In this document: positions 906 through 39,401 of the stretch, one piece after another
How the letters are laid out: the number at the start of each line of letters is the position of its first letter
How positions within the stretch are numbered: the stretch's first letter is position 1
Assembly (NCBI GenBank): GCA_964559865.1
Contig: CAZLJD010000030.1
Span: 125,196 to 189,195, forward strand
Length of the DNA: 64,000 bases
Source: an uncultured Synergistota bacterium
GTDB taxonomy: Bacteria; Synergistota; JAGHAJ01
Direction of reading: 5' to 3'
Notes under the pieces: model-generated
The model's input: only the letters and a program-made list of their open reading frames with translations
Told to the model about the DNA's origin: nothing
Database searches by the model: none
Translations under genes and position numbers: made by a program

Positions 906-1940
906 TTGCAGAGATGGAAGCAGGATGTCTTTACGAAATTGACATTTTTGATGCTGTGGTTTTTGGCAGGGATAACGCTTCTTAATGTGATTCAAGGGAA
1001 GCCTTTCTGTCATGTCCTTATACTGAGCGTAGCTACCTTACTGGATGCGTTTATGTTTTTTGTGGCTTTTTTCTACGAAAGGTATTTTATATCTGCGTGG
1101 TTGTGGTTGACCATAGGGGTATTGGTTGGGCTATGGTTCACTACAGGTGGGCTCCAGAGCGCCATCTCTTATTATTTTATAATACCGTTCTTGTTTAATC
1201 TTGTGTTCTTCGAGGGTAGGAAACGGGTGTTGGGTTTTGTAGGTATAGTTTTTGTCTTTCTTTCGCTTTCCATAGTGGAGTATCACTATCCTTACTTGGT
1301 GTATAGGTACTCGTCCCGGTTTGATAGGTGGTTGCATGTCTCGAGTGCAGCACTGTTTTACATGATAATCTCTGCGTTTTTTGTCTCTATAGTGCTGAGG
1401 GAGTTTGTAAAGGAGCAGATCATAGTGAAGCTACAGAACAGGCGTCTTGAGGAGCTCAGCATGAAGGATAGTTTAACGGGTTTGTATAATCACGATGCCA
1501 TTATAGAGATGTTGACCAAAGAGTTAGAAATGGTCAAGAGGTTTGGGAGTCCTCTCTCCGTTTTGATGTTTGATGTAGATGATTTTAAGAGTATAAACGA
1601 TGAGCTTGGTCATCAAGTAGGAGATGAGGTTTTAAAGGTGGTTGGGAGTGTTGTAAGGGAGAGTATCAGGGGTGCAGATGTGCCCGGTAGGTATGGTGGG
1701 GATGAGTTTCTGGTCGTGCTACCCCAGTCGAATATTACTGGTGCTCGCCTCGTTGCAGATAGAATAAGAAATAGATTGCGCTCTCTGAGAGTAAGTGGCT
1801 TGAATAGGGCCATAACGATAAGTGGAGGTATTGTTGGGGCGGATGGTCATACTGCAGAAAAATTAATAAGAATTGTGGACAATCTTTTGTATAGGGCAAA
1901 GAAACAGGGAAAAGACAGAATAGAAGTAGAATTAAGTTAG
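906..1940 (+). CDS. membrane-anchored diguanylate cyclase (GGDEF domain)
   Basis: N-terminal hydrophobic segments; C-terminal GGDEF domain with intact RYGGDEF active-site motif and LTGLYNHDA / FDVDDFKSIND blocks; TTG start. Confidence 0.85.
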   Translation: MQRWKQDVFTKLTFLMLWFLAGITLLNVIQGKPFCHVLILSVATLLDAFMFFVAFFYERYFISAWLWLTIGVLVGLWFTTGGLQSAISYYFIIPFLFNLVFFEGRKRVLGFVGIVFVFLSLSIVEYHYPYLVYRYSSRFDRWLHVSSAALFYMIISAFFVSIVLREFVKEQIIVKLQNRRLEELSMKDSLTGLYNHDAIIEMLTKELEMVKRFGSPLSVLMFDVDDFKSINDELGHQVGDEVLKVVGSVVRESIRGADVPGRYGGDEFLVVLPQSNITGARLVADRIRNRLRSLRVSGLNRAITISGGIVGADGHTAEKLIRIVDNLLYRAKKQGKDRIEVELS

Positions 1941-1961
1941 TTTAACTTTCACAAATACTGC

Positions 1962-1990
1962 TTGACATCGTTCAGTTAAGGCTGTATACT
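1962..1990 (+). promoter_or_regulatory. sigma70-like promoter for the 13-gene complex operon (TTGACA, 17-nt spacer, TATACT)
   Basis: TTGACA at 1962-1967 and TATACT at 1985-1990 read directly; lies between the GGDEF stop (1940) and the first complex gene (2058). Confidence 0.55.
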
Positions 1991-2057
1991 ACTAACAGAT
2001 ATTGCTGGTGTATAAGGGAAATGCCTGAAAGGAACTTAGTTTAGAAAGGGTGGTTCT

Positions 2058-2603
2058 TTGAAGCAAGAAGCCAGCAAGCTAAGTAGATTTCTCTACGCAT
2101 TTATCGTCTATTCCCTTTTGTGGTGTGTATTTGTCCGTTCCCCCGGTATGTTACCCGGTCAGTGCACGCAGGAGTATGTAGTAGGGATAGTTCTTTCCTT
2201 CTTAGCAGCGTTGGTTAGCTACAAGCATCTTTCCTCTCGTGGTTTAAGAAATTTCTCTCTGCACAGGATTTTGTGGGTTCTCGGATACATACCTGTGCTT
2301 ATATGGGCAATGATAAAGGCAAATCTGGATGTTGCTTACCGCGTGCTTCATCCCAAGATGCCCATAAAACCTGGGATAGTGAGGATAAGGACCGATTTGA
2401 AAAACCCTCTTGCCAAGCTGGTGCTTGCCAACTCTATTACGCTTACGCCTGGCACCATGACTATGCAGATAATAGAGGACAGGTATTACATTCACTGGAT
2501 ATATGTGAGGAGTGAAGATGAAAAGCTGGCAGGAGAGTACATAAAGGGGGAGTTTGAGAAGTACATTAAGGAGGCGTTTGATGACCACGATTACCCATCC
2601 TGA
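2058..2603 (+). CDS. Mrp antiporter subunit E-like membrane protein (MbxA/MbsA-type)
   Basis: Hydrophobic ~180 aa protein, first gene of an operon with MrpF/G/B/C/D homologues; TTG start after AAAGGGTGG. Confidence 0.65.
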   Translation: MKQEASKLSRFLYAFIVYSLLWCVFVRSPGMLPGQCTQEYVVGIVLSFLAALVSYKHLSSRGLRNFSLHRILWVLGYIPVLIWAMIKANLDVAYRVLHPKMPIKPGIVRIRTDLKNPLAKLVLANSITLTPGTMTMQIIEDRYYIHWIYVRSEDEKLAGEYIKGEFEKYIKEAFDDHDYPS

Positions 2604-2853
2604 TCTTTTTCTGTTTTTTATAGGTGTCATAGCTGTGGCAGCCTTTTTGTCGTTGGTGAGGATAATAAAGGGTCCTACGGCGGCAGACAGAGCAGTGGCC
2701 ATGGATATAATGACCAATATAACCATTGTGCTTCTGGTTATATTGGGACTTTTCTTTGATAGGTTTGTTTATCTTGATGTTGCTTTGGTCTATGGGATAC
2801 TCTCATTTGTTGGAGTAATAGCCATAGCGAGGTATCTTGAGAAGGGTATGTGA
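2581..2853 (+). CDS. Mrp antiporter subunit F-like (MbxB-type)
   Basis: Small membrane protein with GPTAADRAVAMD motif typical of MrpF/MnhF; ATG at 2581 preceded by AAGGAGG, overlapping the upstream gene. Confidence 0.75.
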   Translation: MTTITHPDLFLFFIGVIAVAAFLSLVRIIKGPTAADRAVAMDIMTNITIVLLVILGLFFDRFVYLDVALVYGILSFVGVIAIARYLEKGM

Positions 2854-2860
2854 TCTGGTA

Positions 2861-3193
2861 ATGGTGGAATTTTTGAGGGTTTTGGGTTACTTTTTTGTGG
2901 GTGTAGGTTCTTTTTTTCTTTTGTTAGCCTCTATAGGCCTTATAAGGATGCCGGATGTGTATAACAGAATGCAGACATCCACGAAGGCTACCACATTGGG
3001 AGCACTAAGCGTCCTGTTGGGGGTAGGCTTTTTGAACCTCTATTGGTTGCCGAAGAGTCTTGTCATAGCAGCTTTTATTCTGTTAACAGCGCCGGTTGGA
3101 GCCAGTGCTTTGGTGAGGGCGAGTTACAGATCCGGCATAAAGCTGTGGGAGGGTAGCGTCGTTAATAAGTGTAAAGAGGACGAGGAGGGCTGA
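2861..3193 (+). CDS. Mrp antiporter subunit G-like (MbxC-type)
   Basis: RMPDVYNRMQTSTKATTLG motif typical of MrpG/MnhG; start chosen at ATG 2861 (track ORF begins at 2837 TTG). Confidence 0.75.
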   Translation: MVEFLRVLGYFFVGVGSFFLLLASIGLIRMPDVYNRMQTSTKATTLGALSVLLGVGFLNLYWLPKSLVIAAFILLTAPVGASALVRASYRSGIKLWEGSVVNKCKEDEEG

Positions 3194-3195
3194 TT

Positions 3196-3447
3196 GTGGA
3201 GCTGTATGACTTTGTTTCCATTATCCTTATAGGGGGAATGATCGTGCTGGCTTTCATAGCTGCTGAGAGTAGAGACTTGCTTTCTGCCTCTATTGCGATG
3301 GGGGTAGTTAGTCTCATTGTGTCTATCTTGTTTTACATGCTTCAGGCACCAGATGTTGCCATAACGGAGGCAGCTATAGGTGCAGCATTGAGCCTGGCGG
3401 TTATGATATTTGGCATAAAGCACACAGATAGGTGGGAGAAAAAGTGA
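3196..3447 (+). CDS. small membrane subunit of Mrp/Mbx-type complex (MbxD-like)
   Basis: 83-aa two-helix hydrophobic protein, GTG start after GAGGAGGG, position in operon. Confidence 0.55.
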   Translation: MELYDFVSIILIGGMIVLAFIAAESRDLLSASIAMGVVSLIVSILFYMLQAPDVAITEAAIGAALSLAVMIFGIKHTDRWEKK

Positions 3448-4172
3448 AAAGGATAATAGCTATAACCCTTTCTGTGTTGATATTTCTTATATTCATGACT
3501 GCCTTTGCACGGGTAAAGTTTGGTAATATAGCCCTGAGCAAGTACTTTTACTTTAATCCCGTAAAGAAGCAGATGACGAGAGACTCTGTGCCAAGTCATT
3601 ACCTTAAAGAGGGGATAAAAGAAACGGGTTCGACCAACATAGTAACGGCTGTTGTGGTTGATTATAGGGGCTTTGATACTTTGGGAGAGGTTACCGTGCT
3701 GTTTCTTGCTTCTATAGGTGTAGGTGCACTGATGTATATAAAGAGAGAAGAGAAACGCAAGGTACGGGAGGCAAACGAGATAGTGAAGACTGCATCTGCC
3801 TTCCTGTTTGGTTTTATAGTGCTGTTCGGTGCTTATATATTCGTGCATGGGCACCTTACGCCCGGAGGTGGTTTTCCTGGGGGTTCTGTGATTGCTTCAG
3901 CTTACCTTCTGCTCTACCTTGCTTACCCAAAGTATGCGGCAGACCACAGTAAACTTAGTGTCTTGGAAAGCCTGGCAGGACTCACATTTTTGGTTACAGG
4001 TTTGTTAGGTATCATATTCGGGGGACACTTCTTGTACAACTTTTTGCCTTACGGAGTGCCGAGATACCTGTTTAGTGCTGGTGTTATCCCTGTCATATAT
4101 GTAGCAGTTGGCATAAAGGTTGGGTCTGAGCTTACTGGTATAGTGGATTCAATGATGGGGGTGAGAGAGTGA
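3432..4172 (+). CDS. Mrp antiporter subunit B-like (MbxE/F-type)
   Basis: NIVTAVVVDYRGFDTLGEVTVL and HGHLTPGGGFPGG motifs characteristic of MrpB/MnhB. Confidence 0.75.
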   Translation: MGEKVKRIIAITLSVLIFLIFMTAFARVKFGNIALSKYFYFNPVKKQMTRDSVPSHYLKEGIKETGSTNIVTAVVVDYRGFDTLGEVTVLFLASIGVGALMYIKREEKRKVREANEIVKTASAFLFGFIVLFGAYIFVHGHLTPGGGFPGGSVIASAYLLLYLAYPKYAADHSKLSVLESLAGLTFLVTGLLGIIFGGHFLYNFLPYGVPRYLFSAGVIPVIYVAVGIKVGSELTGIVDSMMGVRE

Positions 4173-4501
4173 TCTTCTATGCTGCATCGCTGGCACTCGT
4201 TGCCATAGGTATATATGTGGTCATTTCGAAGAGAAATCTCATCAAGATCATCATAGGGCTCGATATGATAGATACGGGTGTGAACCTCCTTTTGATTTCC
4301 ATAGGATATGTCCGTGGGGGAACGGCACCTATAGAAAATGGTAACTATCCGCTTTATGTGGATCCAATCCCTCACGCATTGGTTCTTACTGCTATAGTAA
4401 TAGGGGTTTCCGTTATGGCTCTCGCCCTTTCTATAGTGATAGGTCTTTATAGACATACTGGTACGCTTGAGATAGACGAGATAAGGGGGCTTGTAAAGTG
4501 A
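4169..4501 (+). CDS. Mrp subunit C / NuoK-like (MbxG-type)
   Basis: 110-aa three-helix protein resembling NuoK/MrpC; GTG start overlapping upstream stop. Confidence 0.75.
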   Translation: MIFYAASLALVAIGIYVVISKRNLIKIIIGLDMIDTGVNLLLISIGYVRGGTAPIENGNYPLYVDPIPHALVLTAIVIGVSVMALALSIVIGLYRHTGTLEIDEIRGLVK

Positions 4502-5919
4502 TAAGACCTGTTCTTTTGATCGCTTTGCCGTTGTTCTTTGCGTTTTTGCTGCCAGTTATTGGCTTATGGAACAAGAAGGGCGTTAAGTATGTGACTGTTG
4601 GTGTTATGGGAGTAGAGTTGTTGCTTGCAGTTGCCCTGCTTGATGAGGTCTTGTTGCACCCCGTTATAGATAAGATTGGTGGATTTGTTCCCCCAATAGG
4701 TATAGTGCTTATGGTGGGTAGGCTTGGTGGTTTTCTTACGCTTATAATAGCGCTTTCCGCCTTCGTGATCTCTATATACAACCTCTGGGAGGACAAAGAG
4801 CCTATCGTTAGGTACAACATGCTTTCACTCTTGCTCCTTATGGGTTCCGTTGGGATGGTAATTACAGGTGATATATTTAACCTGTTTGTTTTTCTTGAGA
4901 TTACATCTATAGCCTCTTACGGACTCGCATCCTATAATCGTGATGCAAGGGGTTTTTCTGGAGCAATAAAGTATGTAGTACTTGGTTCTATAGGCAGTAG
5001 TTTTGTTCTGATAGGTATAGCGTTGATATATGCCCAGTTGAGGACACTTAACATGCTCGACATAGCGCACAGGATAGGAGAGATGGACCCTTATGTTAGG
5101 CTGATTGCTTTTACATCTCTGTTCCTCGGTTTTGGAGTGGAAGCGGAGATGTTTCCTTTAAACACATGGGTACCAGGTGTTTATGATGGAGCACCCAACG
5201 CCGTTGTAAGTATGTTTGCTTCCATGCCTGCAAAATCTTCTATTTTTGCACTTGCAAGGATGATGTTTACCGTTTTTTCCTTTAGTGGCTTTATGTGGTT
5301 TGTTGCAATCTTGGGGCTTATTACCGTTTTCTTCGGCGAGATGGTGGCATTTGCACAGGATAAGCTGAAGAAGATGCTTGCCTATTCTTCCATAGGGCAG
5401 ATGGGTATGATCATTATGGGGTTGGGTATAGGCACTGCTATGTCTGTTGAGGGTGCGTTTTTTCAGATGTTTGGGCACGCGCTTGCAAAAGCTTTGCTCT
5501 TCTTGGCAGCTGGGTATATGATCTATGCGGTTAAGAGCGAAAAGATACAGGACATGGTGGGAGTTGCAAAGAATCCTTTGGTGGGCGTGCCGGTAGTTAT
5601 TGCCATACTTTCTCTCCTCGGTATGCCACCATTTGTGGGATTTTACGGTAAGTTTTATATAGTGCTTGGTGGTATCGATGCAAGGGCTTACGGGATTATA
5701 GCGCTGTTTTTGGCCGCTACGATTATAGAGGTTGTGTATTATGCCAGATTTATAAAGGTTGCATTTGCAAAACCCGTTAGGGAGTATGTTTCACCGGAGC
5801 CGGTTGTGTATTTGCCGATGATGGTGTTTGCCATTGTCATAGTGGTTTTTGGTATTTTCCCGGCACCTATCTTTGCTATTTTGAGCAAGGTTTCCATGTT
5901 TATCCTGGGAGGAATATGA
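4498..5919 (+). CDS. antiporter-like subunit, MrpD/NuoN family (MbxH-type)
   Basis: 473-aa polytopic protein with proton-pumping antiporter-type conserved blocks (AYSSIGQMG, HALAKALLF). Confidence 0.85.
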   Translation: MIRPVLLIALPLFFAFLLPVIGLWNKKGVKYVTVGVMGVELLLAVALLDEVLLHPVIDKIGGFVPPIGIVLMVGRLGGFLTLIIALSAFVISIYNLWEDKEPIVRYNMLSLLLLMGSVGMVITGDIFNLFVFLEITSIASYGLASYNRDARGFSGAIKYVVLGSIGSSFVLIGIALIYAQLRTLNMLDIAHRIGEMDPYVRLIAFTSLFLGFGVEAEMFPLNTWVPGVYDGAPNAVVSMFASMPAKSSIFALARMMFTVFSFSGFMWFVAILGLITVFFGEMVAFAQDKLKKMLAYSSIGQMGMIIMGLGIGTAMSVEGAFFQMFGHALAKALLFLAAGYMIYAVKSEKIQDMVGVAKNPLVGVPVVIAILSLLGMPPFVGFYGKFYIVLGGIDARAYGIIALFLAATIIEVVYYARFIKVAFAKPVREYVSPEPVVYLPMMVFAIVIVVFGIFPAPIFAILSKVSMFILGGI

Positions 5920-5920
5920 G

Positions 5921-7735
5921 ATGGGGCATCAGGACTTGTTCTGGCTATTTGTGATTCTTCCGGCATTTGGTGGTATCCTTTCTTTTTTTCTTGAGAGGTA
6001 TGCAGTGGCTGTTGCAACGCTCTTCAGTGGAGTAGTGCTTGCATTTGCTATGTTTGGCTATGGTATGGCTGGGATGGGGGTACTGCATGTTGGGTTTGAG
6101 ATGCACCTTTCCTTGGATGCTGTATCTTGGTTCTTCATGGTAATGATAGACCTCGTTGGGTTTGTTGCTCTTATGTTTTCAATGGAGTTTATTACAGATG
6201 GTAAGGGGAGCTTTTCCTTCTTTATGTTGCTTGCGTTGGCGGGTGCAAACGGCGTCGTAATGTCAAGGGATTTTCTATCCCTGTATATCTTTTGGGAGAT
6301 CATGTCTTGGTCTGTTTTCCTATTGGTGTTGCGGAGCTCTGGGGAGTGGGCTAAAAAATACATCGTTTTTGCCGTAATTTCTGCTGTGCTCTTGCTGATG
6401 GGTATAGGTGTTGTGTACCATTATTCTGGTAGCTTGGTGTATAGTGGTGCGGTGAAGGGGCTGTCTCTGTCTGCGTGGGGTGTTGCATTGTCTCTTCTGA
6501 TTGTTGGCTTTATGGTGAAAATGGCCGTTGTGCCGTTGCATGTGTGGGCACCGTATGCCTATTCTTCTGAACAGACATTTGTTGCGTTCTTGTCTGGGGG
6601 TTTAAGTAAGCTTGGTACATTTGGAGTACTCGTGGTGATGTATATGGCTGCAGGTGTTTCCGTGATGCACGGTTTTGGCGTTTTTAAGAATGTTTCACTG
6701 TTTGGTTATCCTTTTGCTCTGCTCGGTGCAATCACAGCTTTTGTGGGTACTATAGTTGCTGTGTTTCAAGATGACATAAGAAAACTCCTTGCGTATTCCT
6801 CTATTGGGCAACTTGGTTATGTAATGGTTGGTTTGGGACTTGGTATGCCACTTGCCGTTGGGGGGGCGATCTTTCACGCTTTTAACCATGCGATGTTTAA
6901 GTCCGTACTGTTTATGGGGGTAGCGGCGGTCTTCTATAGAGTAAAGACATACAGGATAAGTGAGATGGGCGGTTTGGGTTACAAGATGCCGTTTACATTT
7001 TTGGCGGTGCTTACGGCTATATTTGGTCTTGCTGGCATACCTGTAACATCTGGCTTTATTTCGAAGTGGATGCTTTACGAAGCGGCAATTCAGAACAGAT
7101 TTGTCATAATTGCTCCTCTCATGCTGGTTGCCTCTGTCGGGGCGTTTCTGTATTGCTTCAGAATCCTCTACGGGGTATTCCTGGGTCAGATAGATAGGGG
7201 TAAAGAAGAGGTAAAAGAGGTTGGCGTTTGGATGCTTTTACCGATGTACATCCTTGTTGTACCTCTTTTGCTCTTTGCACTGTTTCCTGGTTGGATACTT
7301 GCTTGGATAAATGACATGTTGGTCTACATGAATGTGGGAAGGTTGAGCTATACTACTTACAGTTTTTCCTCTCTTATAGGTAATGCAGATATGCTACTGT
7401 TTCTTGGTTCGTTCTTCGTTGCGTTTGCTATAGCTGTGGCACTGTTCGTTAAGAGACCTGCAACAAATGTAGACCAGTATGATAATTACCTCTCTGGAGA
7501 GGTAAGGGAGTATGTAAGGTTGCATGCTGCTTATAACTTTTACAAACCCCTGAAGGATGTGTGGGCACCACTCCTCAACAGGAGTATAGATAGAGGGTAC
7601 GATGCCTTTGGGAAGATGCTGGGGGTTGTGTTTGATAGGGTTAAACTCTTTTACACGGGCAATCCTCAGGACTATGCTGCCTATGTTGGTTTAGCGTTTC
7701 TCATATTTGTAGTGGTTGGATGGTGGTTGAGATGA
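5921..7735 (+). CDS. second antiporter-like subunit, NuoL/MrpA family (MbxH'-type)
   Basis: 604-aa polytopic protein with AYSSIGQLGY and HAFNHAMFKS blocks; RBS GGGAGGAA. Confidence 0.85.
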   Translation: MGHQDLFWLFVILPAFGGILSFFLERYAVAVATLFSGVVLAFAMFGYGMAGMGVLHVGFEMHLSLDAVSWFFMVMIDLVGFVALMFSMEFITDGKGSFSFFMLLALAGANGVVMSRDFLSLYIFWEIMSWSVFLLVLRSSGEWAKKYIVFAVISAVLLLMGIGVVYHYSGSLVYSGAVKGLSLSAWGVALSLLIVGFMVKMAVVPLHVWAPYAYSSEQTFVAFLSGGLSKLGTFGVLVVMYMAAGVSVMHGFGVFKNVSLFGYPFALLGAITAFVGTIVAVFQDDIRKLLAYSSIGQLGYVMVGLGLGMPLAVGGAIFHAFNHAMFKSVLFMGVAAVFYRVKTYRISEMGGLGYKMPFTFLAVLTAIFGLAGIPVTSGFISKWMLYEAAIQNRFVIIAPLMLVASVGAFLYCFRILYGVFLGQIDRGKEEVKEVGVWMLLPMYILVVPLLLFALFPGWILAWINDMLVYMNVGRLSYTTYSFSSLIGNADMLLFLGSFFVAFAIAVALFVKRPATNVDQYDNYLSGEVREYVRLHAAYNFYKPLKDVWAPLLNRSIDRGYDAFGKMLGVVFDRVKLFYTGNPQDYAAYVGLAFLIFVVVGWWLR

Positions 7736-8676
7736 CGGTTATGCTGGAGAACTGGCTTGTGTCTGCTTTGTATGTGTTTTTGGCGATATGTGTAGGATTG
7801 CTTTTTGGAGGAATAGCGAGAAAGGTTACTGCACGCATTCAGAACAGGGTAGGGCCACCTGTTTACCAGAACTTCATAGATGTGGGAAAACTCCTTACAA
7901 AGAAGTCAAACATCAGACACAATTGGATATTTGACTTTGCACCGGTATTTGCCCTGTCAGGGGTAATTATGATACTTCTCTACCTGCCTATGGGTGGTTA
8001 TAGGATGTTTGCCTCTAAAGGGGACCTTATCCTCCTTATGTATATAATGGTGATACCTGCACTGGGTTTTGCGCTTGGTGCTGGTGCAAGCATGAATCCT
8101 AATGCTGGCGTGGGCGTTATGAGGGCATTAACCCTTATGCTCTCTTACGAGATGCCCTTTGTTATAGTGTTACTTTCTGTTATGATATACTACGACACAG
8201 CTTCGCTTACCACCCTTCTTGGAAAGCAGTTTTCCGTGGGGTGGGCTATAGTTGCTCTCCCTATATCGGCAGTTGCGGCTGACATGGCTTTGCAGGGAAT
8301 GATGATGGAAAAGCCGTTTGATATACCGATTGCACCCCACGAGATAGCGTCCGGTCCGTTGGTGGAGTTTGGCGGCAAGTACCTTGGAATGTTGATGCTA
8401 TATTCGGCGGGCGGCATCGTGGTGGAAACCTCTTTGTTTGTGGATCTGTTTCTTGGTGGTGGAGTGGTTCTGGACCCAGCCGTATATGGATTTTGGGCTT
8501 ATTTGGTAAATTATGTTGTGTGGTTTGCCCTCATACTGGCAGTTTGGTTGATAGCGGTGTTTGTGAACGCTGTGTTTCCGAGGTTCAGGATAGAGCAGGC
8601 GTTTAAGTTCTACTGGAAGTGGCCAACGGTTATAGCTATACTGGGATTGGTTCAGGCATACTTTTTGAAGGGATGA
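7720..8676 (+). CDS. NuoH/HycD-like membrane subunit (MbxM-type)
   Basis: 318 aa, RKVTARIQNRVGPP motif typical of NuoH-family subunits. Confidence 0.85.
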   Translation: MVVEMTVMLENWLVSALYVFLAICVGLLFGGIARKVTARIQNRVGPPVYQNFIDVGKLLTKKSNIRHNWIFDFAPVFALSGVIMILLYLPMGGYRMFASKGDLILLMYIMVIPALGFALGAGASMNPNAGVGVMRALTLMLSYEMPFVIVLLSVMIYYDTASLTTLLGKQFSVGWAIVALPISAVAADMALQGMMMEKPFDIPIAPHEIASGPLVEFGGKYLGMLMLYSAGGIVVETSLFVDLFLGGGVVLDPAVYGFWAYLVNYVVWFALILAVWLIAVFVNAVFPRFRIEQAFKFYWKWPTVIAILGLVQAYFLKG

Positions 8677-8677
8677 G

Positions 8678-9208
8678 TTGTCTATGTCTAAGGAAATGAG
8701 TTACAGGGATTGGACAGAGGTAGAGAGGCTTCTTTCCAGGAGGTCCTTGTGGATAATACACTTCTGTACTGGATGTGGGGCAATGGAGATGCCCGCTATC
8801 ATGACCTCCCGTTACGATATGGAGAGGTTTGGTATAATGCCCATGGCGACTCCGAGGCAAGCAGACATCATGCTTGTTACCGGTTATGTGGCTGTTAAAA
8901 CTTTGAAGAGGATAGTTCGTGTCTATGAGCAGATGCAGGATCCGAAATATGTTGTTGCGTTTGGTTCGTGTCCTATAAATGGCGGTTTGTATTGGGATTC
9001 CTATAATACGATAAAGCAACTCGATAAGTACATACCCGTAGATATCTACATAGCAGGCTGTATGCCAAGGCCGGAGGCTATCATGGATGCACTTCTGAAG
9101 CTTATGGATATGATAGACAGGGGTGAAGCGGACGGGTGGCGGAGGTATAAGGAGCAGTTTGAGGTTTACAAGGCGAATCAGAACAGGGTTTTTAAGAGGT
9201 GGGATTGA
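8678..9208 (+). CDS. NuoB-like small subunit with [4Fe-4S] cluster (MbxJ-type)
   Basis: Four conserved Cys (CTGCG ... GSCP ... AGCMPRPE) in NuoB/hydrogenase small-subunit arrangement. Confidence 0.9.
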   Translation: MSMSKEMSYRDWTEVERLLSRRSLWIIHFCTGCGAMEMPAIMTSRYDMERFGIMPMATPRQADIMLVTGYVAVKTLKRIVRVYEQMQDPKYVVAFGSCPINGGLYWDSYNTIKQLDKYIPVDIYIAGCMPRPEAIMDALLKLMDMIDRGEADGWRRYKEQFEVYKANQNRVFKRWD

Positions 9209-9687
9209 TGGAGACTTTTGGGATAGATTTCAAGGAGCTTCCCGTTAAGGGCAATACAAGAAAGCGGCTTTATGGCAGTGTGGAACTTGATAGGATAAAG
9301 GAACACATTAGAAAGTTCAAAGAGGTAGGTTTTAATCACCTTGTTGCGATAAGCTGTATAGATTGGATAGACGATGGAAAGTTTGAGGTGGTTTATCATT
9401 TGTGGAGCTACGAGGAGTTGGTAGATATATTCCTTTCGGTGATGATAGATAGAGATAACCCCAGCCTTCAGAGTGTAAAGGAGCTTTTCCCTCAGGCTGA
9501 GACTTACGAAAGAGAGATGCACGAGATGTTTGGCGTATATTTTGATGGCAACGATAGGTTAACGGAGTTTATCCTTGAAGACTGGGATGGTCCTCCGCCT
9601 ATGCGCAAGGACTTTGACACTAAGAAGTATGCTGAGGAGCGTTTCTATTCTGTACCTCCGGTAGGTGATGTAGATGAAGGAGTATGA
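9208..9687 (+). CDS. NuoC-like subunit (MbxK-type)
   Basis: ~160 aa with NuoC-family blocks (ETYEREMHEMFGVYFDGN); ATG overlaps upstream stop (TGATG). Confidence 0.8.
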   Translation: METFGIDFKELPVKGNTRKRLYGSVELDRIKEHIRKFKEVGFNHLVAISCIDWIDDGKFEVVYHLWSYEELVDIFLSVMIDRDNPSLQSVKELFPQAETYEREMHEMFGVYFDGNDRLTEFILEDWDGPPPMRKDFDTKKYAEERFYSVPPVGDVDEGV

Positions 9688-10804
9688 GCTTTTCATAGGA
9701 CCTCAACATGTTGGTATTACGGGAAACTTTATGGTTCACCTCACATTAGAAGGAGATACAGTAGTAAGTGCGGAGGCACACCCTGGTTATCTTCACCGAG
9801 GTTTCGAAAAACTCATGGAGAGAAGAGATTGGTCCATGAATGTTGCACTTATACCAAGGATATGTGTTCCGGAACCAGATGTCAATGAGGCTGCTTATGC
9901 GATGGCAGTTGAGAGCCTGATGGGGTGGGATATTCCAGAGAGGGCTAAATACATAAGGACAATAGTGCTTGAGCTTGCAAGGATATCTGCATATCTGCTT
10001 GCGATAGGTGGATATGCAGGCACGATAGGTTTGTATACTGCACCACAGTGGATGATGGGGGACAGAGATTACATTCTTGACCTGTTTGAGGAGCTGACTG
10101 GTGCACGAGTGTATCACATATTTATATTTCCTGGGGGTGTGAGGTGGGATATCCCAGATGGCTTCGAGGAACGGGTGAAGAAGGTCATGGACTATCTTGA
10201 AAGCAGACTCCAGCTCTATGATGAGCTACTCTTCAAAAACGAGGTGTTCTTCAGAAGGGCGCCTAATATAGGTGTTATTCCAAAGGATAAGGCTGTGGAA
10301 TGGGGGGTTACTGGGCCTAATCTTCGTGCATGTGGCTATGACTACGATGTCAGGAGGCTTGACCCGTACGCTGCTTACGAAGAGATGGATTTTGATGTGA
10401 TCTCCTACCCTGATAGTGTTAAGGGGTTTGATATCCTTTCTGATGGGTGTGACTGTTATGCAAGGATGGTTGTCAGAAGGGTAGAGTTGCAGGAGAGTAT
10501 AAAGATAATCCGACAGGCTGTGGATAATTTACCTCCGGGTGAAGTAACTCTAAAGAGACCCAATCCCCTTGCCTGGAAAGTACCAAAGGGATATGCGTAT
10601 GCGAGGGTTGAAAGTTCAAAGGGGGAATACGGGTACTTCGTGGTAAGTAACGGTGGTAAGAATCCGTATAGGGTGCATGTGAGGGGACCATCTTATACGC
10701 ACGGCATAAATGTCATTGAGACGATATTGAAAGGTTCAAACATAGCAGATGTTTCTCCCATAATGTTTAGCTTGGATATATGTCCACCTGACATAGAGAG
10801 GTGA
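9674..10804 (+). CDS. NuoD / [NiFe]-hydrogenase large-subunit homologue with incomplete metal-ligand motifs (MbxL/MbsL-type)
   Basis: Group-4 large-subunit-like protein; the N-terminal site reads RICVPE (Cys codon 9863-9865, Glu in place of the second Cys) and the C-terminal site reads DICPPDIER (Cys codon 10781-10783, Asp in place of the second Cys). Confidence 0.85.
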   Translation: MKEYELFIGPQHVGITGNFMVHLTLEGDTVVSAEAHPGYLHRGFEKLMERRDWSMNVALIPRICVPEPDVNEAAYAMAVESLMGWDIPERAKYIRTIVLELARISAYLLAIGGYAGTIGLYTAPQWMMGDRDYILDLFEELTGARVYHIFIFPGGVRWDIPDGFEERVKKVMDYLESRLQLYDELLFKNEVFFRRAPNIGVIPKDKAVEWGVTGPNLRACGYDYDVRRLDPYAAYEEMDFDVISYPDSVKGFDILSDGCDCYARMVVRRVELQESIKIIRQAVDNLPPGEVTLKRPNPLAWKVPKGYAYARVESSKGEYGYFVVSNGGKNPYRVHVRGPSYTHGINVIETILKGSNIADVSPIMFSLDICPPDIER

Positions 10805-10805
10805 T

Positions 10806-11267
10806 GTGATGAGTATAGTCAAGCCTTTTAAGGCGTTGCAGCACCTGTTTAAGAAACCACACACGGTTAGGATCCCTTATCAGGAGCATACAGACATAAC
10901 AGGTTTGCCTGTACCTACCGAGAGGTATAGAGGCTTTCACTCCAATGACATACAGAAGTGTATAGGGTGTCAGTTGTGCGGTAGGGTATGCCCTGCAAAT
11001 GCGATTACGTATGAAAAGTTCGAAAATGTGGAGAGCAAAATAAAGCTCAGACCGGTTGTGGACTATGGCCGGTGCTGTTACTGTGGTTTTTGCGTAGATG
11101 TGTGCCCTACAAAGTCTTTGAAACTTACACCCCGATACGAACTGGTATCTCCTAATATAAAGGACTTCAAGTTTATACCCACGGCTGAGATTGCGGGCAA
11201 GGATGATAAAGCAATCTCCATGTCGGAGGTGTTGTTCTCCCCGAAAGATTATAAACCTTCGGAATAG
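10806..11267 (+). CDS. NuoI-like 2x[4Fe-4S] ferredoxin subunit (MbxN-type)
   Basis: Two CxxCxxCxxxCP motifs (CIGCQLCGRVCP, CCYCGFCVDVCP). Confidence 0.85.
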   Translation: MMSIVKPFKALQHLFKKPHTVRIPYQEHTDITGLPVPTERYRGFHSNDIQKCIGCQLCGRVCPANAITYEKFENVESKIKLRPVVDYGRCCYCGFCVDVCPTKSLKLTPRYELVSPNIKDFKFIPTAEIAGKDDKAISMSEVLFSPKDYKPSE

Positions 11268-11305
11268 GCTTTTGTGCCGTTAAACTCTTATGGTAAAATA
11301 TTGGC

Positions 11306-14116
11306 ATGAGAAAGAGAATAGCTGTACTTGTTGTTTCCATGCTGGCTATTATGGTGTCTATTATCTACTTTGTGGATAGGTGGGTGCTCATAGATTACAT
11401 AAGCTCCCAGCTGTCTACCTCATTTCGTCAGAGGCTCTCCGGCATAAGACAGCTCGTGGATGGTGGGGTAACTGCGAGTAAGCTTGTTAGAGAGTACAGA
11501 GGATATGTCACCAATCTGGTATTGGAGGATGACCTTCAGAGGGTAAAGGCATTCTTGCAGATGTGTGATTCGTGGTCGAAGGCAGGTATACTGAGTGAGG
11601 ATGATGCAAAAAGGCTTGCGCTGAGCTACTTAAAGTCGGTTGGTGCCTATGTGTTGAACTCTTCGGGTAAAGCGCTCGTTTTCCCTGTCTACATTGAGAA
11701 GTTTTCCAAGAGTTCCGGAAGGCATGTGGGTTGGAGGAGGTTTGCTCCCTGGGGCTGGAAGATAGGAATGGTAATGAGTGAGAGGGATATCTTTGGTGTG
11801 CAGTATGGAGGCTTTGAGAAGCGGATAAAGAGTGCTGTCTTGAAGAGGATTAGTTACATGCCCTCTAATGGATCTTATGTGGTGGTATACAACAGGCGTG
11901 GCAGGATCATATCCTATCCTCACAGAAAGGTTTCTGCGGATGACCTACCAAGTTCTCCTTATGTGAAGAAGGTGTTTTCGCTTAAGAGTGGTAGTTTTAC
12001 CTATTCTTTTAACGGTAAGAGAAAAGAGAGGGTGTTCTCTTATGTGCCACTTATTGGGTGGTACATAGTCTTTACTGCTTACCCTGATGAGATGTGTTAT
12101 CCGATGCTTGTGAATATGCTGAAAGGGGAACTACCGACTGTTGTGGTTATATTGGTGTTATTAGGAGCCCTTGGGTTGTACGCGTGGAACAAATGTGTGC
12201 TCCTTCCACTTACGCAGGTAACGACAGGATTTGAGGAGCTTGGCAAGGGAAACTACAACTACAAGTTAGACCCCGATACCATAAGATACCCTTATATGAA
12301 AAGCCTTTTTAAGGACTTTAACTATATGATAGAAAAGCTCAAAGAGGGAGAAGAGGAACTCGTCAGGGCTTACAGGAAGTTAGAGGTGCTCAATGCAAGT
12401 ATATCACGCAGATATGAGGACCTCCAAAGGGAGCTTGAAAGGTTAAGGGTTTTGGACGCAATAATATCTGCCACGATCGGACTTGTGGATCACAAGGAGA
12501 TAGCTGCCCGTGTTGTAGATACGCTGGCTTCTACTGGGAGGTATAGTGATATAGGTATCCTGCTGAAGGAGGGAGATCTCCTTAAACGACTTGCGCATCA
12601 CGGTATAGTGTGGAGTAAGTTTGAGCAGTTTCCCATTAATAGTGGAGTGACCGGATGGGCGGTTAGGGATAAGGAGATAAAAAATGTTCCCAATGTTTTG
12701 GCTGAGAGTCACTATGTTGAAGGGAATGCCGCTGTCCGTTCTGAGCTTGCGTGTCCTATAGTCCTTGGTACAGATGTCGTGGGTGTGGTGGATGTGGAGA
12801 GTATGGAACCCTCTTACTTCGTTAGGGATGATGAGCTTATGCTTAGGATGGTGAGTGACTACCTTGCGATGGTCTTCCGGAGGGCTGACTCTGTGAAGTT
12901 GCTTCAGAGAAGACTTAAAGATATGGGCTTTTTACTGCGTCTGCTTAGGAGCGTCTCTAAGACGGAGCACATAGGTGAGCTGTCGAAACAGGTATGCGAG
13001 ATGGTGCAGGAGTATGGTGATTACAATAATGTGACGATGTACATTAGGGACGGGAATTTGCTGGTTTTAACCTATATTGCCGGTTTGCCCATACCTGAAG
13101 ATGTGTATAAGGTAGATTGGGGGATAATCAGTATCTATGGGAAAGGGATATCTGCCAGGGCGGCAAGGACTGCGGAGATGCAGAATGTTCCGAACTGCCT
13201 TGAGGACCCTGATTATCTGGTGGGGGATCGCACCACCAAGAGTGAGCTTGCCGTTCCAGTAAAAGTGGGAAATGAGGTTTTTGCGGTATTGGACTTAGAG
13301 TCAAACGAGTTCAATGCGTTTGGTAAGGAGGATGAGAGGCTGCTTTACCTGATTGCTGAGAACCTTGGGGCAATAATTCGGAGGGTGGAACTGGTGGAGG
13401 GGCTTGAAAGCACCGTTAAGGCACTGGAGGAGAGGAATAAGGAGCTCACACTCAAAGATGAGGAGCTGGAAGTTTCTGTTGAACAGCTTAGGGCCTATAC
13501 TCGGGAGCTTGAGAGCGTTCATCGTGATATGGTACAAAAGGAGACGGAACTTGAGGAAGCGTACTTGGATACCATAAAGGCTCTGGCAAGGGCTATAGAG
13601 ATGAAGGATCCATATGCGAGGGGACACACTACGAAGGTGGCAAGCTATGCGTTGAAGGTGGGGGAGGCTCTAGGACTAAGTGAAGAGGATATGAGGAATC
13701 TCTTGTATGCAGCGATCCTTCACGATATAGGCAGGATAGGACTTAAAGGGGCTGTTCTCGACAAACCTCATGAACTCACAGAAAAGGAAATAGAGTATAT
13801 AAAGGGGTATCCTGCAAGAGGTGCAAGTGTGCTAATGCAGATAGACTACCTTAGAGATGTGGCAAATGTGGTTTTGCACCACCAGGAGAGATGGGATGGT
13901 AGTGGCTATCCTGCAGGTTTAAAGGGAGAAGAGATACCGCTTTTGAGTAGGATTATAGCAGTCGTTGATGCCTATGATGCCATGATCTCTGATAGACCTT
14001 ACAGAAAGGCACTCTCAAAGGAAGAGGCGTTGAGGAGGATAAAGGAGTCTGCGGGGACGCAGTTTGACCCGAGGATTGTGGATGTCTTTTTGAAAGTTGT
14101 AGGGGAAGAGGAGTAA
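11306..14116 (+). CDS. membrane sensor with periplasmic domain, two GAF domains and C-terminal HD-GYP c-di-GMP phosphodiesterase domain
   Basis: Two TM segments flanking a ~250-aa extracytoplasmic region, coiled coils, GAF-like regions, then HD-GYP (LHDIGRIG ... HHQERWDGSGYPAGL). Confidence 0.85.
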   Translation: MRKRIAVLVVSMLAIMVSIIYFVDRWVLIDYISSQLSTSFRQRLSGIRQLVDGGVTASKLVREYRGYVTNLVLEDDLQRVKAFLQMCDSWSKAGILSEDDAKRLALSYLKSVGAYVLNSSGKALVFPVYIEKFSKSSGRHVGWRRFAPWGWKIGMVMSERDIFGVQYGGFEKRIKSAVLKRISYMPSNGSYVVVYNRRGRIISYPHRKVSADDLPSSPYVKKVFSLKSGSFTYSFNGKRKERVFSYVPLIGWYIVFTAYPDEMCYPMLVNMLKGELPTVVVILVLLGALGLYAWNKCVLLPLTQVTTGFEELGKGNYNYKLDPDTIRYPYMKSLFKDFNYMIEKLKEGEEELVRAYRKLEVLNASISRRYEDLQRELERLRVLDAIISATIGLVDHKEIAARVVDTLASTGRYSDIGILLKEGDLLKRLAHHGIVWSKFEQFPINSGVTGWAVRDKEIKNVPNVLAESHYVEGNAAVRSELACPIVLGTDVVGVVDVESMEPSYFVRDDELMLRMVSDYLAMVFRRADSVKLLQRRLKDMGFLLRLLRSVSKTEHIGELSKQVCEMVQEYGDYNNVTMYIRDGNLLVLTYIAGLPIPEDVYKVDWGIISIYGKGISARAARTAEMQNVPNCLEDPDYLVGDRTTKSELAVPVKVGNEVFAVLDLESNEFNAFGKEDERLLYLIAENLGAIIRRVELVEGLESTVKALEERNKELTLKDEELEVSVEQLRAYTRELESVHRDMVQKETELEEAYLDTIKALARAIEMKDPYARGHTTKVASYALKVGEALGLSEEDMRNLLYAAILHDIGRIGLKGAVLDKPHELTEKEIEYIKGYPARGASVLMQIDYLRDVANVVLHHQERWDGSGYPAGLKGEEIPLLSRIIAVVDAYDAMISDRPYRKALSKEEALRRIKESAGTQFDPRIVDVFLKVVGEEE

Positions 14117-14181: not shown

Positions 14182-14257
14182 GGGCCGTTAGCTCAGGAGG
14201 TAGAGCACCGGACTTTTAATCCGGGTGTCGCAGGTTCGAATCCTGCACGGCTCACCA
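14182..14257 (+). tRNA. tRNA-Lys (anticodon TTT)
   Basis: 76-nt cloverleaf folded by hand: acceptor GGGCCGT/ACGGCTC, anticodon stem CCGGA/TCCGG with loop CTTTTAA, T-arm GCAGG-TTCGAAT-CCTGC, encoded CCA. Confidence 0.9.
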
Positions 14258-36942: not shown

Positions 36943-38595
36943 TTGTTGATGTTAGGTTTAGAGTACTGTAAACTTACAGTGATGTTTATTCTGGGGGTGG
37001 GAGATTTGGTTGATTTTGGGTGGGATTTTCCTTATCCTTCTGTTAGGATGCCTGTTATGGCTGGCAACATAGTAGCTACCTCTCAGCCATTAGCAGCGCA
37101 AGCGGGTATAGAGATGCTCTGGAGAGGTGGAAATGCAGTAGATGCTGCTATTGCTACAGCTGTGGCGTTGACGGTAGTAGAACCAACATCTAATGGTATA
37201 GGTGGAGACGCTTTTGCCATCGTTTGGGATACGAAAAGGCTGCACGGCCTTAATGCCTCTGGTAAGTCTCCTGCTGCTTGGAGTTTTGAGTACTTTTCGA
37301 AGAAGTATTCGTCTATGCCTATGTTGGGCTGGGATACGGTTACCGTGCCTGGTGTGGTTTCGTCTTGGGTGGAGTTGTCTAACAGGTTTGGTAAACTGCC
37401 TTTTGCAGATTTGTTTGAGCCTGCCGTTAGGTATGCTTATGATGGTTTTATAGTCTCTCCTTTTACTGCGAGAAGGTGGGAACTTGCGGCGGATATTTAC
37501 AAGGATTTTCCCGAGTTTGCCAGGGCATTTTTACCCGGGGGAAAACCACCTAAGGCTGGGGAAAGGTTTGAGTTCAAGGAGCAGGCAAAGACTTTAGAGA
37601 TGATAGCGGAGACAAAGGGAGAAGCATTTTATCGCGGTGTCTTGGCGGAGAAGATAGTTGAGCACGCTAAGGCTACTGGCGGAATGATCACCGAGGAGGA
37701 TTTAGCGTTGCACGAGGTGGAGTGGGTTGAACCCATTTGCATAGATTATCACGGATTTACTCTACATGAATTGCCACCCAATGGACAGGGGATAGCTGCA
37801 CTCATTGCGTTGGGTATACTGGACCGTTGGGATGTGAGAGATTACGGTGTGGACACGGGAGACAGCTTACACCTGCAAATAGAGGCTATGAAACTGGCGT
37901 TTGCGGATACCTACAGGTATATATCTGATCCACGGACGATGGAAGTGGACTTTAGAGAGCTGTTGTCTTCTGAGTATCTGGATATGCGTTCGAAGTTAAT
38001 TGATTCCAAGAGGGCTGGGGATTCTACTTACGGTACACCAAAACCTGGAGGAACTGTTTATCTAACCGTAGCCGATAGAAGTGGTATGATGGTTTCCTTT
38101 ATACAATCAAACTTTATGGGGTTTGGCTCCGGTATTGTGATACCGGGTACGGGTATCAGCATGCAGAACAGGGGTCATGGTTTTAGCTTGGAGAAAGGCC
38201 ATCCAAATCAAGTAGATGGTGGGAAAAAGCCTTTCCACACGATCATACCTGCATTTGTGACGAAGAACGGACTCCCTGTGATGAGTTTTGGTGTGATGGG
38301 TGGTCCTATGCAACCTCAAGGGCATGTCCAGGTTATGCTGCGTGTGTTTGACTTTCACCAGAATCCTCAGGCTGCATGTGATGCACCCCGCTGGCGTGTG
38401 CTTGAAGGTAGAAAGGTAGCTGTTGAGCCCGGGTTCAAACCAGAGGTTCTGGATGACTTGAAGATGCGAGGACATGAGATTGTCGTTACAGATGATTTTT
38501 TGATGTTTGGTGGGGCGCAGGCGATTTACAGACTTTCTGATGGTTATCTTGGTGCTTCTGATCCAAGAAAGGATGGACAGGCAGTAGGATTTTGA
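36943..38595 (+). CDS. ggt: gamma-glutamyltranspeptidase
   Basis: GGNAVDAAIA ... GGDAFAIVWD N-terminal blocks and nucleophile region GTVYLTVADRSGMMVSF, C-terminal GGAQAI; true start may be ATG 37047. Confidence 0.85.
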   Translation: MLMLGLEYCKLTVMFILGVGDLVDFGWDFPYPSVRMPVMAGNIVATSQPLAAQAGIEMLWRGGNAVDAAIATAVALTVVEPTSNGIGGDAFAIVWDTKRLHGLNASGKSPAAWSFEYFSKKYSSMPMLGWDTVTVPGVVSSWVELSNRFGKLPFADLFEPAVRYAYDGFIVSPFTARRWELAADIYKDFPEFARAFLPGGKPPKAGERFEFKEQAKTLEMIAETKGEAFYRGVLAEKIVEHAKATGGMITEEDLALHEVEWVEPICIDYHGFTLHELPPNGQGIAALIALGILDRWDVRDYGVDTGDSLHLQIEAMKLAFADTYRYISDPRTMEVDFRELLSSEYLDMRSKLIDSKRAGDSTYGTPKPGGTVYLTVADRSGMMVSFIQSNFMGFGSGIVIPGTGISMQNRGHGFSLEKGHPNQVDGGKKPFHTIIPAFVTKNGLPVMSFGVMGGPMQPQGHVQVMLRVFDFHQNPQAACDAPRWRVLEGRKVAVEPGFKPEVLDDLKMRGHEIVVTDDFLMFGGAQAIYRLSDGYLGASDPRKDGQAVGF

Positions 38596-38636
38596 CAAGT
38601 TTCTGTGAATCTGTATGAGAGTATGCTGCACGGGAG

Positions 38637-39401
38637 GTGGACATTATGAGTTTTATTTTTTTTGTAATGGTATTTGGTGTAGGTATAGCAGCTGGCTTTT
38701 TGAATGTGATCGCTGGTGGAGGGTCTTTGCTTGTCCTTCCGACTCTTGTTTTCCTGGGGCTTGGTATAGATATTGCGAATGCTACTAACCGTGTAGCAAT
38801 ACTCCTGCAGAATGTTGTTGCGGTTAGAGAGTTCCACAGGAAGGGTGTATTGTCTTTTAAAGATGTGCTACCTTTTATTATCCCTGCGATTGTTGGGGCG
38901 GTTGCAGGCTCCTTTCTTGCCATAAACCTGAATAGAAGGGTGCTTGAGGTTGTGGTGGCTATAGCTATATCTGTGATGGCAGTTTTTCTCGTTTTGAAGC
39001 CAAAGATGTGGGAAGAGAAGAGGGATACACTACTGCCCAAGTGGGCTGTTTGGGTGGTATTTTTTCTTATAGGTATGTATGGTGGGTTTATACAGGCAGG
39101 AGTTGGCTTTTTCTTTATATGGGGATTGGTCGGCATCGGAGGGCTTGATTTACTGACTACCAATGCAGTGAAAGTAACCATAATCGCCCTTTATACCGTC
39201 TTTAGCCTGACCATCTTTCTGTTACACGGATTTGTTGATTTGAAGGTAGGTCTTGTCCTTGCAGCGGGGAACATAGTGGGGGCCTTATTAGGGACTCACT
39301 TTGCTATATCAAGAGGTAATCGTGCCTTAAGATTGGTACTTGCAGTAGTGGTGATCGTTAGTGCAGTAAAGATGCTGTGGAGTGCGTTTGTAGGTAGTTA
39401 A
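38637..39401 (+). CDS. TSUP-family (TauE/SafE-like) anion exporter
   Basis: Two-repeat polytopic protein with AGFLNVIAGGGSLLVLPTLVFLG block. Confidence 0.8.
   Translation: MDIMSFIFFVMVFGVGIAAGFLNVIAGGGSLLVLPTLVFLGLGIDIANATNRVAILLQNVVAVREFHRKGVLSFKDVLPFIIPAIVGAVAGSFLAINLNRRVLEVVVAIAISVMAVFLVLKPKMWEEKRDTLLPKWAVWVVFFLIGMYGGFIQAGVGFFFIWGLVGIGGLDLLTTNAVKVTIIALYTVFSLTIFLLHGFVDLKVGLVLAAGNIVGALLGTHFAISRGNRALRLVLAVVVIVSAVKMLWSAFVGS

Follow-up and report, generated by a model that had tools for sequence, protein, structure and literature searches.

The window analysed here, 64,000 nucleotides of contig CAZLJD010000030.1 (assembly GCA_964559865.1) from an uncultured Synergistota bacterium known solely through metagenomic contigs, carries at 2058–11267 an operon of 13 genes that joins Mrp antiporter-like subunits to complex I-like subunits. 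The locus raises the question of which ion-translocating complex is encoded, which electron partner it uses and how it came to lie in this genome. A sequence-only reading had assigned the operon to the Mbx/Mbs architecture rather than to Mbh or complex I and had named sulfane sulfur and NAD(P)+ as candidate acceptors. MBS, formerly named Mbx, is seen as an intermediate in evolution that links Mrp antiporters or hydrogenases with complex I, and has an unusual iron–sulfur-cluster chemistry for sulfur respiration. We consider it probable (about 65 per cent, by our own estimate) that the operon encodes a complete, functional complex of the MBS type, which would pass electrons from ferredoxin to sulfane sulfur and pump ions. 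We also think the balance tilts slightly toward a more specific scenario, in which a Synergistota-like vent bacterium took a ferredoxin-dependent, NAD(P)-independent MBS from an archaeon of the DHVE2 lineage, holds it under a sigma-70 promoter, has kept it by selection and is a rare bacterial carrier of the form with a short subunit N.

The relationship to MBS is evident in every subunit. For all 13, the top match in the Protein Data Bank (PDB) is the corresponding chain of the Pyrococcus furiosus MBS complex (entry 6U8Y), one-to-one; in gene order these chains are A, B, C, D, E, G, H, X (equivalent to H′), M, J, K, L and N, and the gene order of the window operon is identical to that of mbs. 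Subunit L scores 402 bits against MBS (6U8Y), compared to 255 bits against Nqo4 of Thermus thermophilus and 146 bits against MbhL of the P. furiosus MBH complex (6CFW), and subunit J scores 263 bits against MBS, compared to 121 bits against MBH and 139 bits against the next family. Complex I chains score far below the MBS chains for both L and J, and MBH scores are 1.3- to 3-fold lower than MBS scores for every window subunit shown. The second antiporter-like subunit, H′ (604 aa), aligns over residues 10–600 with residues 7–617 of MbsH′, apparently including the C-terminal extension that forms the HL helix region in MBS. In MbsH′ this extension consists of a horizontal helix (HL) and transmembrane helices 15–16 with Loop 1 (PMC7684303).

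The operon itself is complete. The 13 contiguous, mostly overlapping genes that the sequence-only reading had described are all present as intact open reading frames (ORFs) without internal stops, co-oriented on the forward strand and joined at junctions of −50 to +2 nt. Their Pfam families run exactly A–B–C–D–E–G–H–H′–M–J–K–L–N and agree, ORF by ORF, with the subunit families proposed earlier, including the antiporter-like subunits of 473 and 604 aa. Family-specific Pfam models match the operon ORFs with E-values from 4e-17 to 7e-79, and the NuoI-like subunit N matches generic 4Fe-4S models only (Fer4, 5e-12). Neither clustering of the subunits with Mbh or Ech hydrogenases nor an interruption of the operon, either of which had been expected to speak against the Mbx/Mbs assignment, was found: MBH scores are much lower, and the ORFs are unbroken.

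The sequence shows that the peripheral arm is complete: N, K, L and J are all present, and every cluster ligand is in place. M is the NuoH-like anchor, H and H′ are antiporter-like, and A, B, C, D, E and G make up a module of the Mrp type. Conservation of individual residues was counted among 81 homologues of L, 74 of J and 71 of M. Subunit J aligns with residues 14–167 of MbsJ without a gap and has an identical FCTGCG motif. The proximal-cluster motif of MbsJ is three residues shorter than that of MBH and contains three Cys ligands and one non-ligand Cys (PMC7684303); the gapless alignment and the FCTGCG motif indicate that window J shares the three-residue shortening. C33, C98 and C128 of J are invariant in all 74 homologues, whereas C30, equivalent to the non-ligand C25 of MbsJ, is replaced by Gly in 19 of them, a ligand pattern that would fit a three-Cys proximal cluster, as predicted. 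Subunit L keeps two of the four cysteines at NiFe positions, C64 (in RICVPEPD) and C370 (in DICPPDIER), which align with C85 and C385 of MbsL. C64 is a Cys in 81/81 homologues and C370 in 80/81, the remaining sequence coming from a truncated contig.

Of the charged axis that runs through M, H′, H, D and G, 10 of the 13 named MBS residues are kept or conservatively replaced, and three differ. Those kept include E134 and K246 in H, E126, K230 and H319 in H′, and D201, E208 and E216 in M, where E208 and E216 are invariant in the 71 homologues. Subunit D retains a Glu equivalent to E58 of MbsD, and an Asp in subunit G aligns with E37 of MbsG.

From these components we infer ferredoxin as the donor, sulfane sulfur as the acceptor and the pumping of an ion. 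Reduced ferredoxin from fermentation would most likely dock on the short subunit N, and electrons would pass through the two [4Fe-4S] clusters of N to the proximal [4Fe-4S] cluster of J. The proximal cluster of P. furiosus MBS has three Cys ligands, and its open iron cleaves the S–S bonds of polysulfide (PMC7684303). The predicted three-Cys cluster of J would do the same, within a chamber enclosed by L, M and H′ loops. Conformational and electrostatic coupling through the charged axis would then drive proton pumping by H and H′, the Mrp-type module (A, B, C, D, E and G) would carry out Na+/H+ exchange, and the resulting ion gradient would feed ATP synthesis.

That the host is a bacterium is not in doubt. 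Among the genes of the window are those for GGDEF and HD-GYP proteins, MurJ, Fpg, the delta subunit of DNA polymerase III and a bacterial-type class II lysyl-tRNA synthetase (LysRS). The best named relatives of the LysRS are from Synergistetes metagenome-assembled genomes (MAGs), Thermovirga and Firmicutes at 57–60 per cent identity, with a maximum of 61 per cent to other bacteria, and the 90 per cent identity cluster of the window's TrkH includes one protein labelled 'Synergistetes bacterium'. The TrkH cluster and the LysRS matches lend weak support to the phylum label Synergistota.

The operon has a different affinity. Scanning a single genome for each GTDB species, we found at least 590 loci with an L of the RICVP[ED]P type. 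Among the matches listed, L is 74–77 per cent identical to its homologues in DHVE2/Aciduliprofundum MAGs, ~66 per cent to those of other Thermoplasmata and 54–60 per cent to those of many bacterial phyla, and DHVE2 loci are the best match for all 13 subunits (55–82 per cent identity), a level of similarity above that of the host's LysRS to any other bacterium (61 per cent); for MAG contigs, the taxon named depends on how they were binned. When the 13 proteins were searched by tblastn, practically all complete loci proved to have their 13 genes in this order.

To place the operon, we reconstructed a neighbour-joining tree from concatenated M, J, L, G, E and C (1216 columns, 24 taxa, 100 bootstraps), midpoint rooted and built without an outgroup and without Thermococcales. 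The window operon and that of a sister species (GCA_053938165.1, locus L083) group with the DHVE2 locus L004 (100 per cent bootstrap support), this group joins three further DHVE2/Thermoplasmata loci (100 per cent), and together they lie inside a wider Thermoplasmata clade (84 per cent). The contig of L004 is archaeal: a gene for archaeal isopentenyl phosphate kinase (NF040647) follows immediately after its operon, and one for diphthine synthase (TIGR00522, 312 bits) lies downstream. It was NCBIfam that gave these markers; Pfam searches of the flanks of L004 and L005 were not diagnostic of the domain of life. Subunit L of the window also has 11 additional residues at ~243–253 (SYPDSVKGFDI), an insertion that P. 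furiosus MbsL and most bacterial homologues lack. Common only to the nine closest homologues aligned, two of which are labelled (a Thermoplasmata archaeon and a Bacteroidetes bacterium), it reads as an indel signature consistent with the tree.

The DHVE2 best matches and the fully supported nesting indicate that the whole operon passed from an archaeon into a bacterium. Because the sister species, known from an independent assembly, has the same operon, downstream genes and promoter region (its MbsL is 94 per cent identical), an assembly chimera is unlikely. The simplest reading is a single whole-operon transfer from a DHVE2 archaeon, which would predate the split of the two bacterial species. 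Base composition neither supports nor dates such a transfer, since no anomaly was found in the operon (GC 0.449 and third-position GC 0.474) relative to the other window genes (0.462 and 0.491). The operon has been under strong purifying selection since the species split: between the window and the sister species, the ratio of non-synonymous to synonymous substitution rates (dN/dS) is 0.04 over the operon and 0.017–0.063 per gene, with a dS of ~1.4.

The form of subunit N bears on the electron partner. In ~55 of ~60 bacterial loci, N is a protein of 590–800 aa in which a NuoI-like part is followed by Fer4_20 and Pyr_redox_2 domains, that is, by a GltD/SudA-like NAD(P)H flavoprotein (e.g., L012, L023, L058 and L067). 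In a split form, seen in two further loci, the GltD-like gene is separate and lies immediately downstream (11729–13033 in L046 and 12773–14122 in L072). The GltD-type variant of N was previously noted for Thermotoga and proteobacteria (PMC4758237). A short N is found in the window, the sister species, the DHVE2 loci and P. furiosus. Among the bacteria sampled it is rare, occurring in the window lineage and in an Atribacteria locus (L013) whose contig ends ~490 nt after N, so that a separate GltD-like gene may lie beyond its end. Window N, with 153 aa and Fer4 domains only, has no Fer4_20 or Pyr_redox_2 extension, and Pfam detects no nucleotide-binding domain in any of the 13 subunits. A tblastn search with two GltD-like tails found no GltD-like sequence in the 64-kb window, and the sister and DHVE2 loci also lack one. 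The predicted architecture of the window operon is thus NAD(P)-independent and of the ferredoxin type, and the short-N and GltD-fused-N architectures probably differ in their electron partner. Given the short N and the lack of a GltD-like gene within 64 kb, a ferredoxin-to-sulfane-sulfur route is favoured over NAD(P)+: of the two acceptors first suggested, NAD(P)+ has lost ground and sulfane sulfur is retained, as the one that we infer.

The evidence on sulfur from related systems points the same way for P. furiosus, where ferredoxin is reported to drive polysulfide reduction at the proximal [4Fe-4S] cluster, with no NAD(P)+ step proposed (PMC7684303). In Thermotoga maritima, the bacterial homologue mbxA is induced 4.4-fold by elemental sulfur, and thiosulfate also induces it (PMC9431562). 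The window operon is most similar to loci of DHVE2/Aciduliprofundum. Aciduliprofundum and Synergistota isolates have been described as reducers of elemental sulfur or thiosulfate.

Several observations weigh against a complete, functional sulfane-reducing complex. No sulfur-handling partner adjoins the operon in a search of the window for NSR, SudAB/Nfn, Rnf and Psr; the search gave only genes for TauE, gamma-glutamyltranspeptidase and DsbD/thioredoxin-like proteins, none of which is next to the operon. L is only 51 per cent identical to MbsL, and D lacks the Trp-rich C-terminal tail that MbsD uses for dimerisation of MBS (PMC7684303). The charged axis differs at three positions, where H330 of MbsH is replaced by Q323, E104 of MbsM by V111 and E193 of MbsM by K198, although a Glu sits one position before K198. 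These substitutions predominate across the homologue family, so H330, E104 and E193 look specific to Pyrococcus rather than their replacements being defects of the window operon. A further observation concerns the two cysteines of L. The MbsL residues equivalent to C64 and C370 are dispensable for the reduction of dimethyl trisulfide (DMTS) in vitro (PMC7684303), yet C64 and C370 are retained wherever a homologue extends over the position. The picture of the physiological chemistry here may therefore be incomplete, and it is a possibility that the invariant pair marks a still undescribed physiological function.

Four other explanations can be set against an MBS-type sulfane reductase. The older Mbx model sees in the complex a ferredoxin:NAD(P)+ oxidoreductase and leaves sulfur reduction to a separate soluble enzyme of the NSR type. 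This model was accepted before 2018, is still applied to Mesotoga and in comparative work, and fits most bacterial homologues, whose N carries an NAD(P)H flavoprotein domain like GltD; it fits poorly with an operon whose N is short, which has no GltD-like gene nearby (nor do the sister and DHVE2 loci) and none of whose subunits binds a nucleotide by a recognisable domain. MBS itself, moreover, is reported to reduce polysulfide at its proximal cluster, with no NAD(P)+ step proposed (PMC7684303), and we judge the model improbable for the window operon. Another possibility keeps the machine and changes its chemistry, either through a different acceptor (organic persulfides or trisulfides, thiosulfate-derived sulfane, cystine or an unknown substrate) or through operation in reverse, with reduced ferredoxin as the product. 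The conservation of C64 and C370 just described would be compatible with it, as would the induction of T. maritima mbxA by thiosulfate and the occurrence of the same 13-gene block in sulfur-oxidising Gammaproteobacteria (Sedimenticola, Thiodiazotropha and Thiomargarita). Given that the nearest characterised enzyme uses polysulfide and that the window falls in a short-N clade together with sulfur-reducing archaea, we regard this possibility as unlikely, if deserving of attention.

The remaining two explanations take the operon out of the MBS family. A quinone-reducing, complex I-like enzyme of the Nuo11 type is what automatic annotation implies: L passes the NCBIfam model NF004739 ('NADH-quinone oxidoreductase subunit D') with 438 bits against a cutoff of 360, and all L homologues with a source name are called NuoD in databases. 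However, J has a C-x-x-C motif in place of the adjacent Cys–Cys of the N2 cluster, the operon has an Mrp E/F/G module and lacks NuoA, NuoJ and NuoEFG, and complex I chains trail the MBS chains in score, which leaves such an enzyme very improbable. To our knowledge, Synergistota isolates are generally quinone-free fermenters. It is standard annotation that hides complexes of the MBS type under the names 'complex I' and 'NADH-quinone oxidoreductase'. An H2-evolving, energy-converting hydrogenase of the Mbh or Ech type might be suspected from the presence of hypA, hypD and hypE in the same window and from a weak match of L to the NiFeSe_Hases Pfam family (9.6e-5, below the family cutoff). We rejected it, as the NiFe ligands are missing from L, in which both CxxC motifs are reduced to one Cys each; the score of L against MbhL (146 bits) is far below that against MbsL (402 bits), the operon has two antiporter-like subunits instead of one, and the hyp genes lie 28–43 kb away, where they presumably serve another hydrogenase. 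A hydrogenase is hardly credible here. The reading of the operon as an MBS-type complex with ferredoxin as donor and sulfane sulfur as acceptor is thus the one that we prefer.

The upstream region of the operon holds a putative bacterial promoter. The promoter-like site named in the sequence-only reading is present at 1962–1990: TTGACA-17-TATACT matches the sigma-70 consensus at 11/12 positions, is the best match within 1700–11600 and lies inside the sole intergenic gap upstream of the operon. Promoter-like matches in the region number 15, compared to 16.9 expected in shuffled sequence, which is chance level, and the consensus match alone therefore proves little. In the sister species, both hexamers are unchanged and the spacer has five substitutions; the conservation of the hexamers and the location in the only upstream gap add weight to the site as a predicted promoter. 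The sequence AAGTTAG-T-TTAACTT forms an imperfect palindrome whose centre lies ~21 nt upstream of the −35 hexamer; it overlaps the stop codon of the preceding GGDEF gene and is a candidate operator. It is unchanged in the sister species, but so are ~60 surrounding nt.

For the first gene of the operon, mbsA, TTG at 2058 is better supported as the predicted start than the ATG at 2148 chosen by automatic gene callers, because the alignment with MbsA already begins at residue 3 of the protein read from TTG and AAAGGGTGG precedes this codon by 6 nt. The callers' start gives a protein of 151 aa instead of 181 aa, and other automatic starts in the operon are shifted by 1–9 codons. The features of the operon and its surroundings are collected in the table.

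Table. Features of the mbs-like operon, its flanks and other loci mentioned in the text (positions in the window; bit scores are for P. furiosus MBS, 6U8Y, and MBH, 6CFW, chains).
Feature	Position	Strand	Description
Membrane GGDEF cyclase	906–1940	+	Upstream flank of operon
Imperfect palindrome	1934–1948		Candidate operator
Sigma-70-type promoter-like site TTGACA-17-TATACT	1962..1990	+	~67 nt upstream of first start codon
Shine–Dalgarno-like AAAGGGTGG	6 nt upstream of mbsA TTG	+	Sequence
mbsA (MrpE-like)	2058..2603	+	181 aa, TTG start; Pfam MNHE 7.9e-41; 6u8y_A 163 bits vs 6cfw_A 96
mbsB (MrpF-like)	2554..2853	+	99 aa (automatic 90 aa); MrpF_PhaF 4.4e-17; 6u8y_B 76.7 bits vs 6cfw_B 57.4
mbsC (MrpG-like)	2837..3193	+	118 aa; PhaG_MnhG_YufB 1.9e-23; 6u8y_C 114.9 bits vs 6cfw_C 37.5
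mbsD (MbhD/DUF4040 small membrane subunit)	3196..3447	+	83 aa; MbhD 1.9e-20; 6u8y_D 77 bits
mbsE (MbhE + MnhB/MrpB-like)	3432..4172	+	246 aa; MnhB 1.4e-24, MbhE 1.8e-12; 6u8y_E 204.7 bits
mbsG (MrpC/NuoK-like)	4169..4501	+	110 aa; Oxidored_q2 8e-26; 6u8y_G 107 bits vs 6cfw_G 86.5
mbsH, antiporter-like subunit 1 (MrpD/NuoN-like)	4498..5919	+	473 aa; Proton_antipo_M 7.3e-58; 6u8y_H 298 bits vs 6cfw_H 203
mbsH′, antiporter-like subunit 2	5921..7735	+	604 aa; Proton_antipo_M 4.6e-48; 6u8y_X 277 bits vs 6cfw_H 164
mbsM (NuoH-like membrane anchor of peripheral arm)	7720..8676	+	318 aa; NADHdh 2.3e-57; 6u8y_M 253–255 bits vs 6cfw_M 101
mbsJ (NuoB-like, predicted proximal [4Fe-4S] cluster)	8678..9208	+	176 aa; Oxidored_q6; 6u8y_J 263 bits, 68% identity
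mbsK (NuoC-like)	9199..9687	+	162 aa; Complex1_30kDa 3.1e-31; 6u8y_K 87 bits
mbsL (NuoD/NiFe large-subunit-like, without NiFe site)	9674..10804	+	376 aa; Complex1_49kDa; 6u8y_L 402 bits, 51% identity
mbsN (NuoI-like, 2x[4Fe-4S], presumed ferredoxin entry)	10806..11267	+	153 aa; Fer4/Fer4_7; 6u8y_N 101 bits
Cache-GAF-GAF-HD-GYP phosphodiesterase	11306..14116	+	39 nt downstream of mbsN; HD_5 1.4e-41, GAF
tRNA genes	14182–14254, 51590–51662, 51670–51742		
Gamma-glutamyltranspeptidase and TauE/SafE sulfite-exporter-family permease	36943–39401	+	Directly upstream of hypA
hypA	39444–39881	+	NiFe-hydrogenase maturation
hypE (AIRS/AIRS_C)	51748–52746	-	NiFe-hydrogenase maturation
hypD	52743–53834	-	NiFe-hydrogenase maturation

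Downstream of the operon, no terminator-like site was found in the gap between mbsN and the HD-GYP gene, and the latter is possibly co-transcribed with the operon. It is a host gene outside the transferred block, present next to the operon in the sister species and absent from archaeal mbs loci. With the GGDEF gene upstream, cyclic di-GMP genes flank the operon on both sides in the window. On the upstream flank of the sister locus, no GGDEF gene was called; there are only unannotated ORFs of 187 aa and 74 aa, the latter matching, with its 3′ end, the terminal part of the GGDEF gene in the window.

Other observations concern the window at large and the relatives of the operon. No hydrogenase structural genes were found in the 64-kb window, and hypA, hypD and hypE presumably serve a hydrogenase encoded elsewhere, an assignment made because the MBS-like L is without NiFe ligands. 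The gamma-glutamyltranspeptidase and the TauE/SafE permease may relate to sulfur or thiol handling and are unlinked to the operon. GC skew is +0.13 to +0.39 over almost the whole window, where nearly all genes are on the forward strand, and is negative only at ~52–60 kb, where genes are on the reverse strand; skew and strand distribution together indicate a marked leading-strand gene bias. In addition to the three genera of sulfur oxidisers named above, tubeworm symbionts and Parasulfuritortus carry the 13-gene block (L057, L060, L063, L067, L070, L077, L081 and others). Its presence in sulfur-oxidising Gammaproteobacteria suggests a role there other than sulfur respiration, possibly by reverse operation.

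Current understanding of the MBS complex itself, already a known kind, is unchanged by the window operon. What goes beyond the sequence-only reading is an archaeal-type, short-N MBS in a bacterial genome, apparently after transfer of the whole operon from DHVE2; the archaeal form free of an NAD(P) module thus also exists in a bacterium. We found no relevant literature on Mbx in Synergistota. The split between short and GltD-fused forms of N offers a practical rule for predicting the electron partner, and the annotation name masks a probable capacity for sulfur respiration in Synergistota-like vent bacteria and in at least 590 loci. If the inter-domain transfer is as clean as it appears, the locus would allow MBS to be studied in a bacterium.

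Among known systems, the window operon differs from complex I, in which NuoB has the adjacent Cys–Cys of N2 where window J has C-T-G-C. MBH of P. furiosus resembles the window operon in its Mrp-derived membrane arm and in a peripheral arm of four subunits, and most subunits have homologues in both; unlike the window operon, it is encoded by 14 genes with just one antiporter-like subunit, keeps all four NiFe cysteines and has a proximal-cluster motif of greater length. The bacterial mbx-like operons (T. maritima MBX and those of Spirochaetes, Bacteroidales, Ignavibacteria, Gammaproteobacteria and others) have the same 13-gene order and the cysteines of L and J; they differ in the mostly GltD-fused N, which is absent from the window, and their L is only 54–60 per cent identical to that of the window. 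P. furiosus MBS agrees with the window operon in its 13 subunits, their order, a short N without an NAD(P) module and two antiporter-like subunits, with 68 per cent identity for J and the lower value already given for L. It differs in a longer N (208 aa compared to 153 aa), in the Trp-rich tail of MbsD and in control by the archaeal regulator SurR, whereas the window operon has a sigma-70-type promoter-like site in a bacterial host. Closest are the mbs loci of DHVE2 and other Thermoplasmata (L003–L010), which share with the window the gene order, the short N and the absence of a GltD-like gene, and from which it is set apart by its surroundings, the flanks being archaeal in the DHVE2 locus L004 and bacterial in the window.

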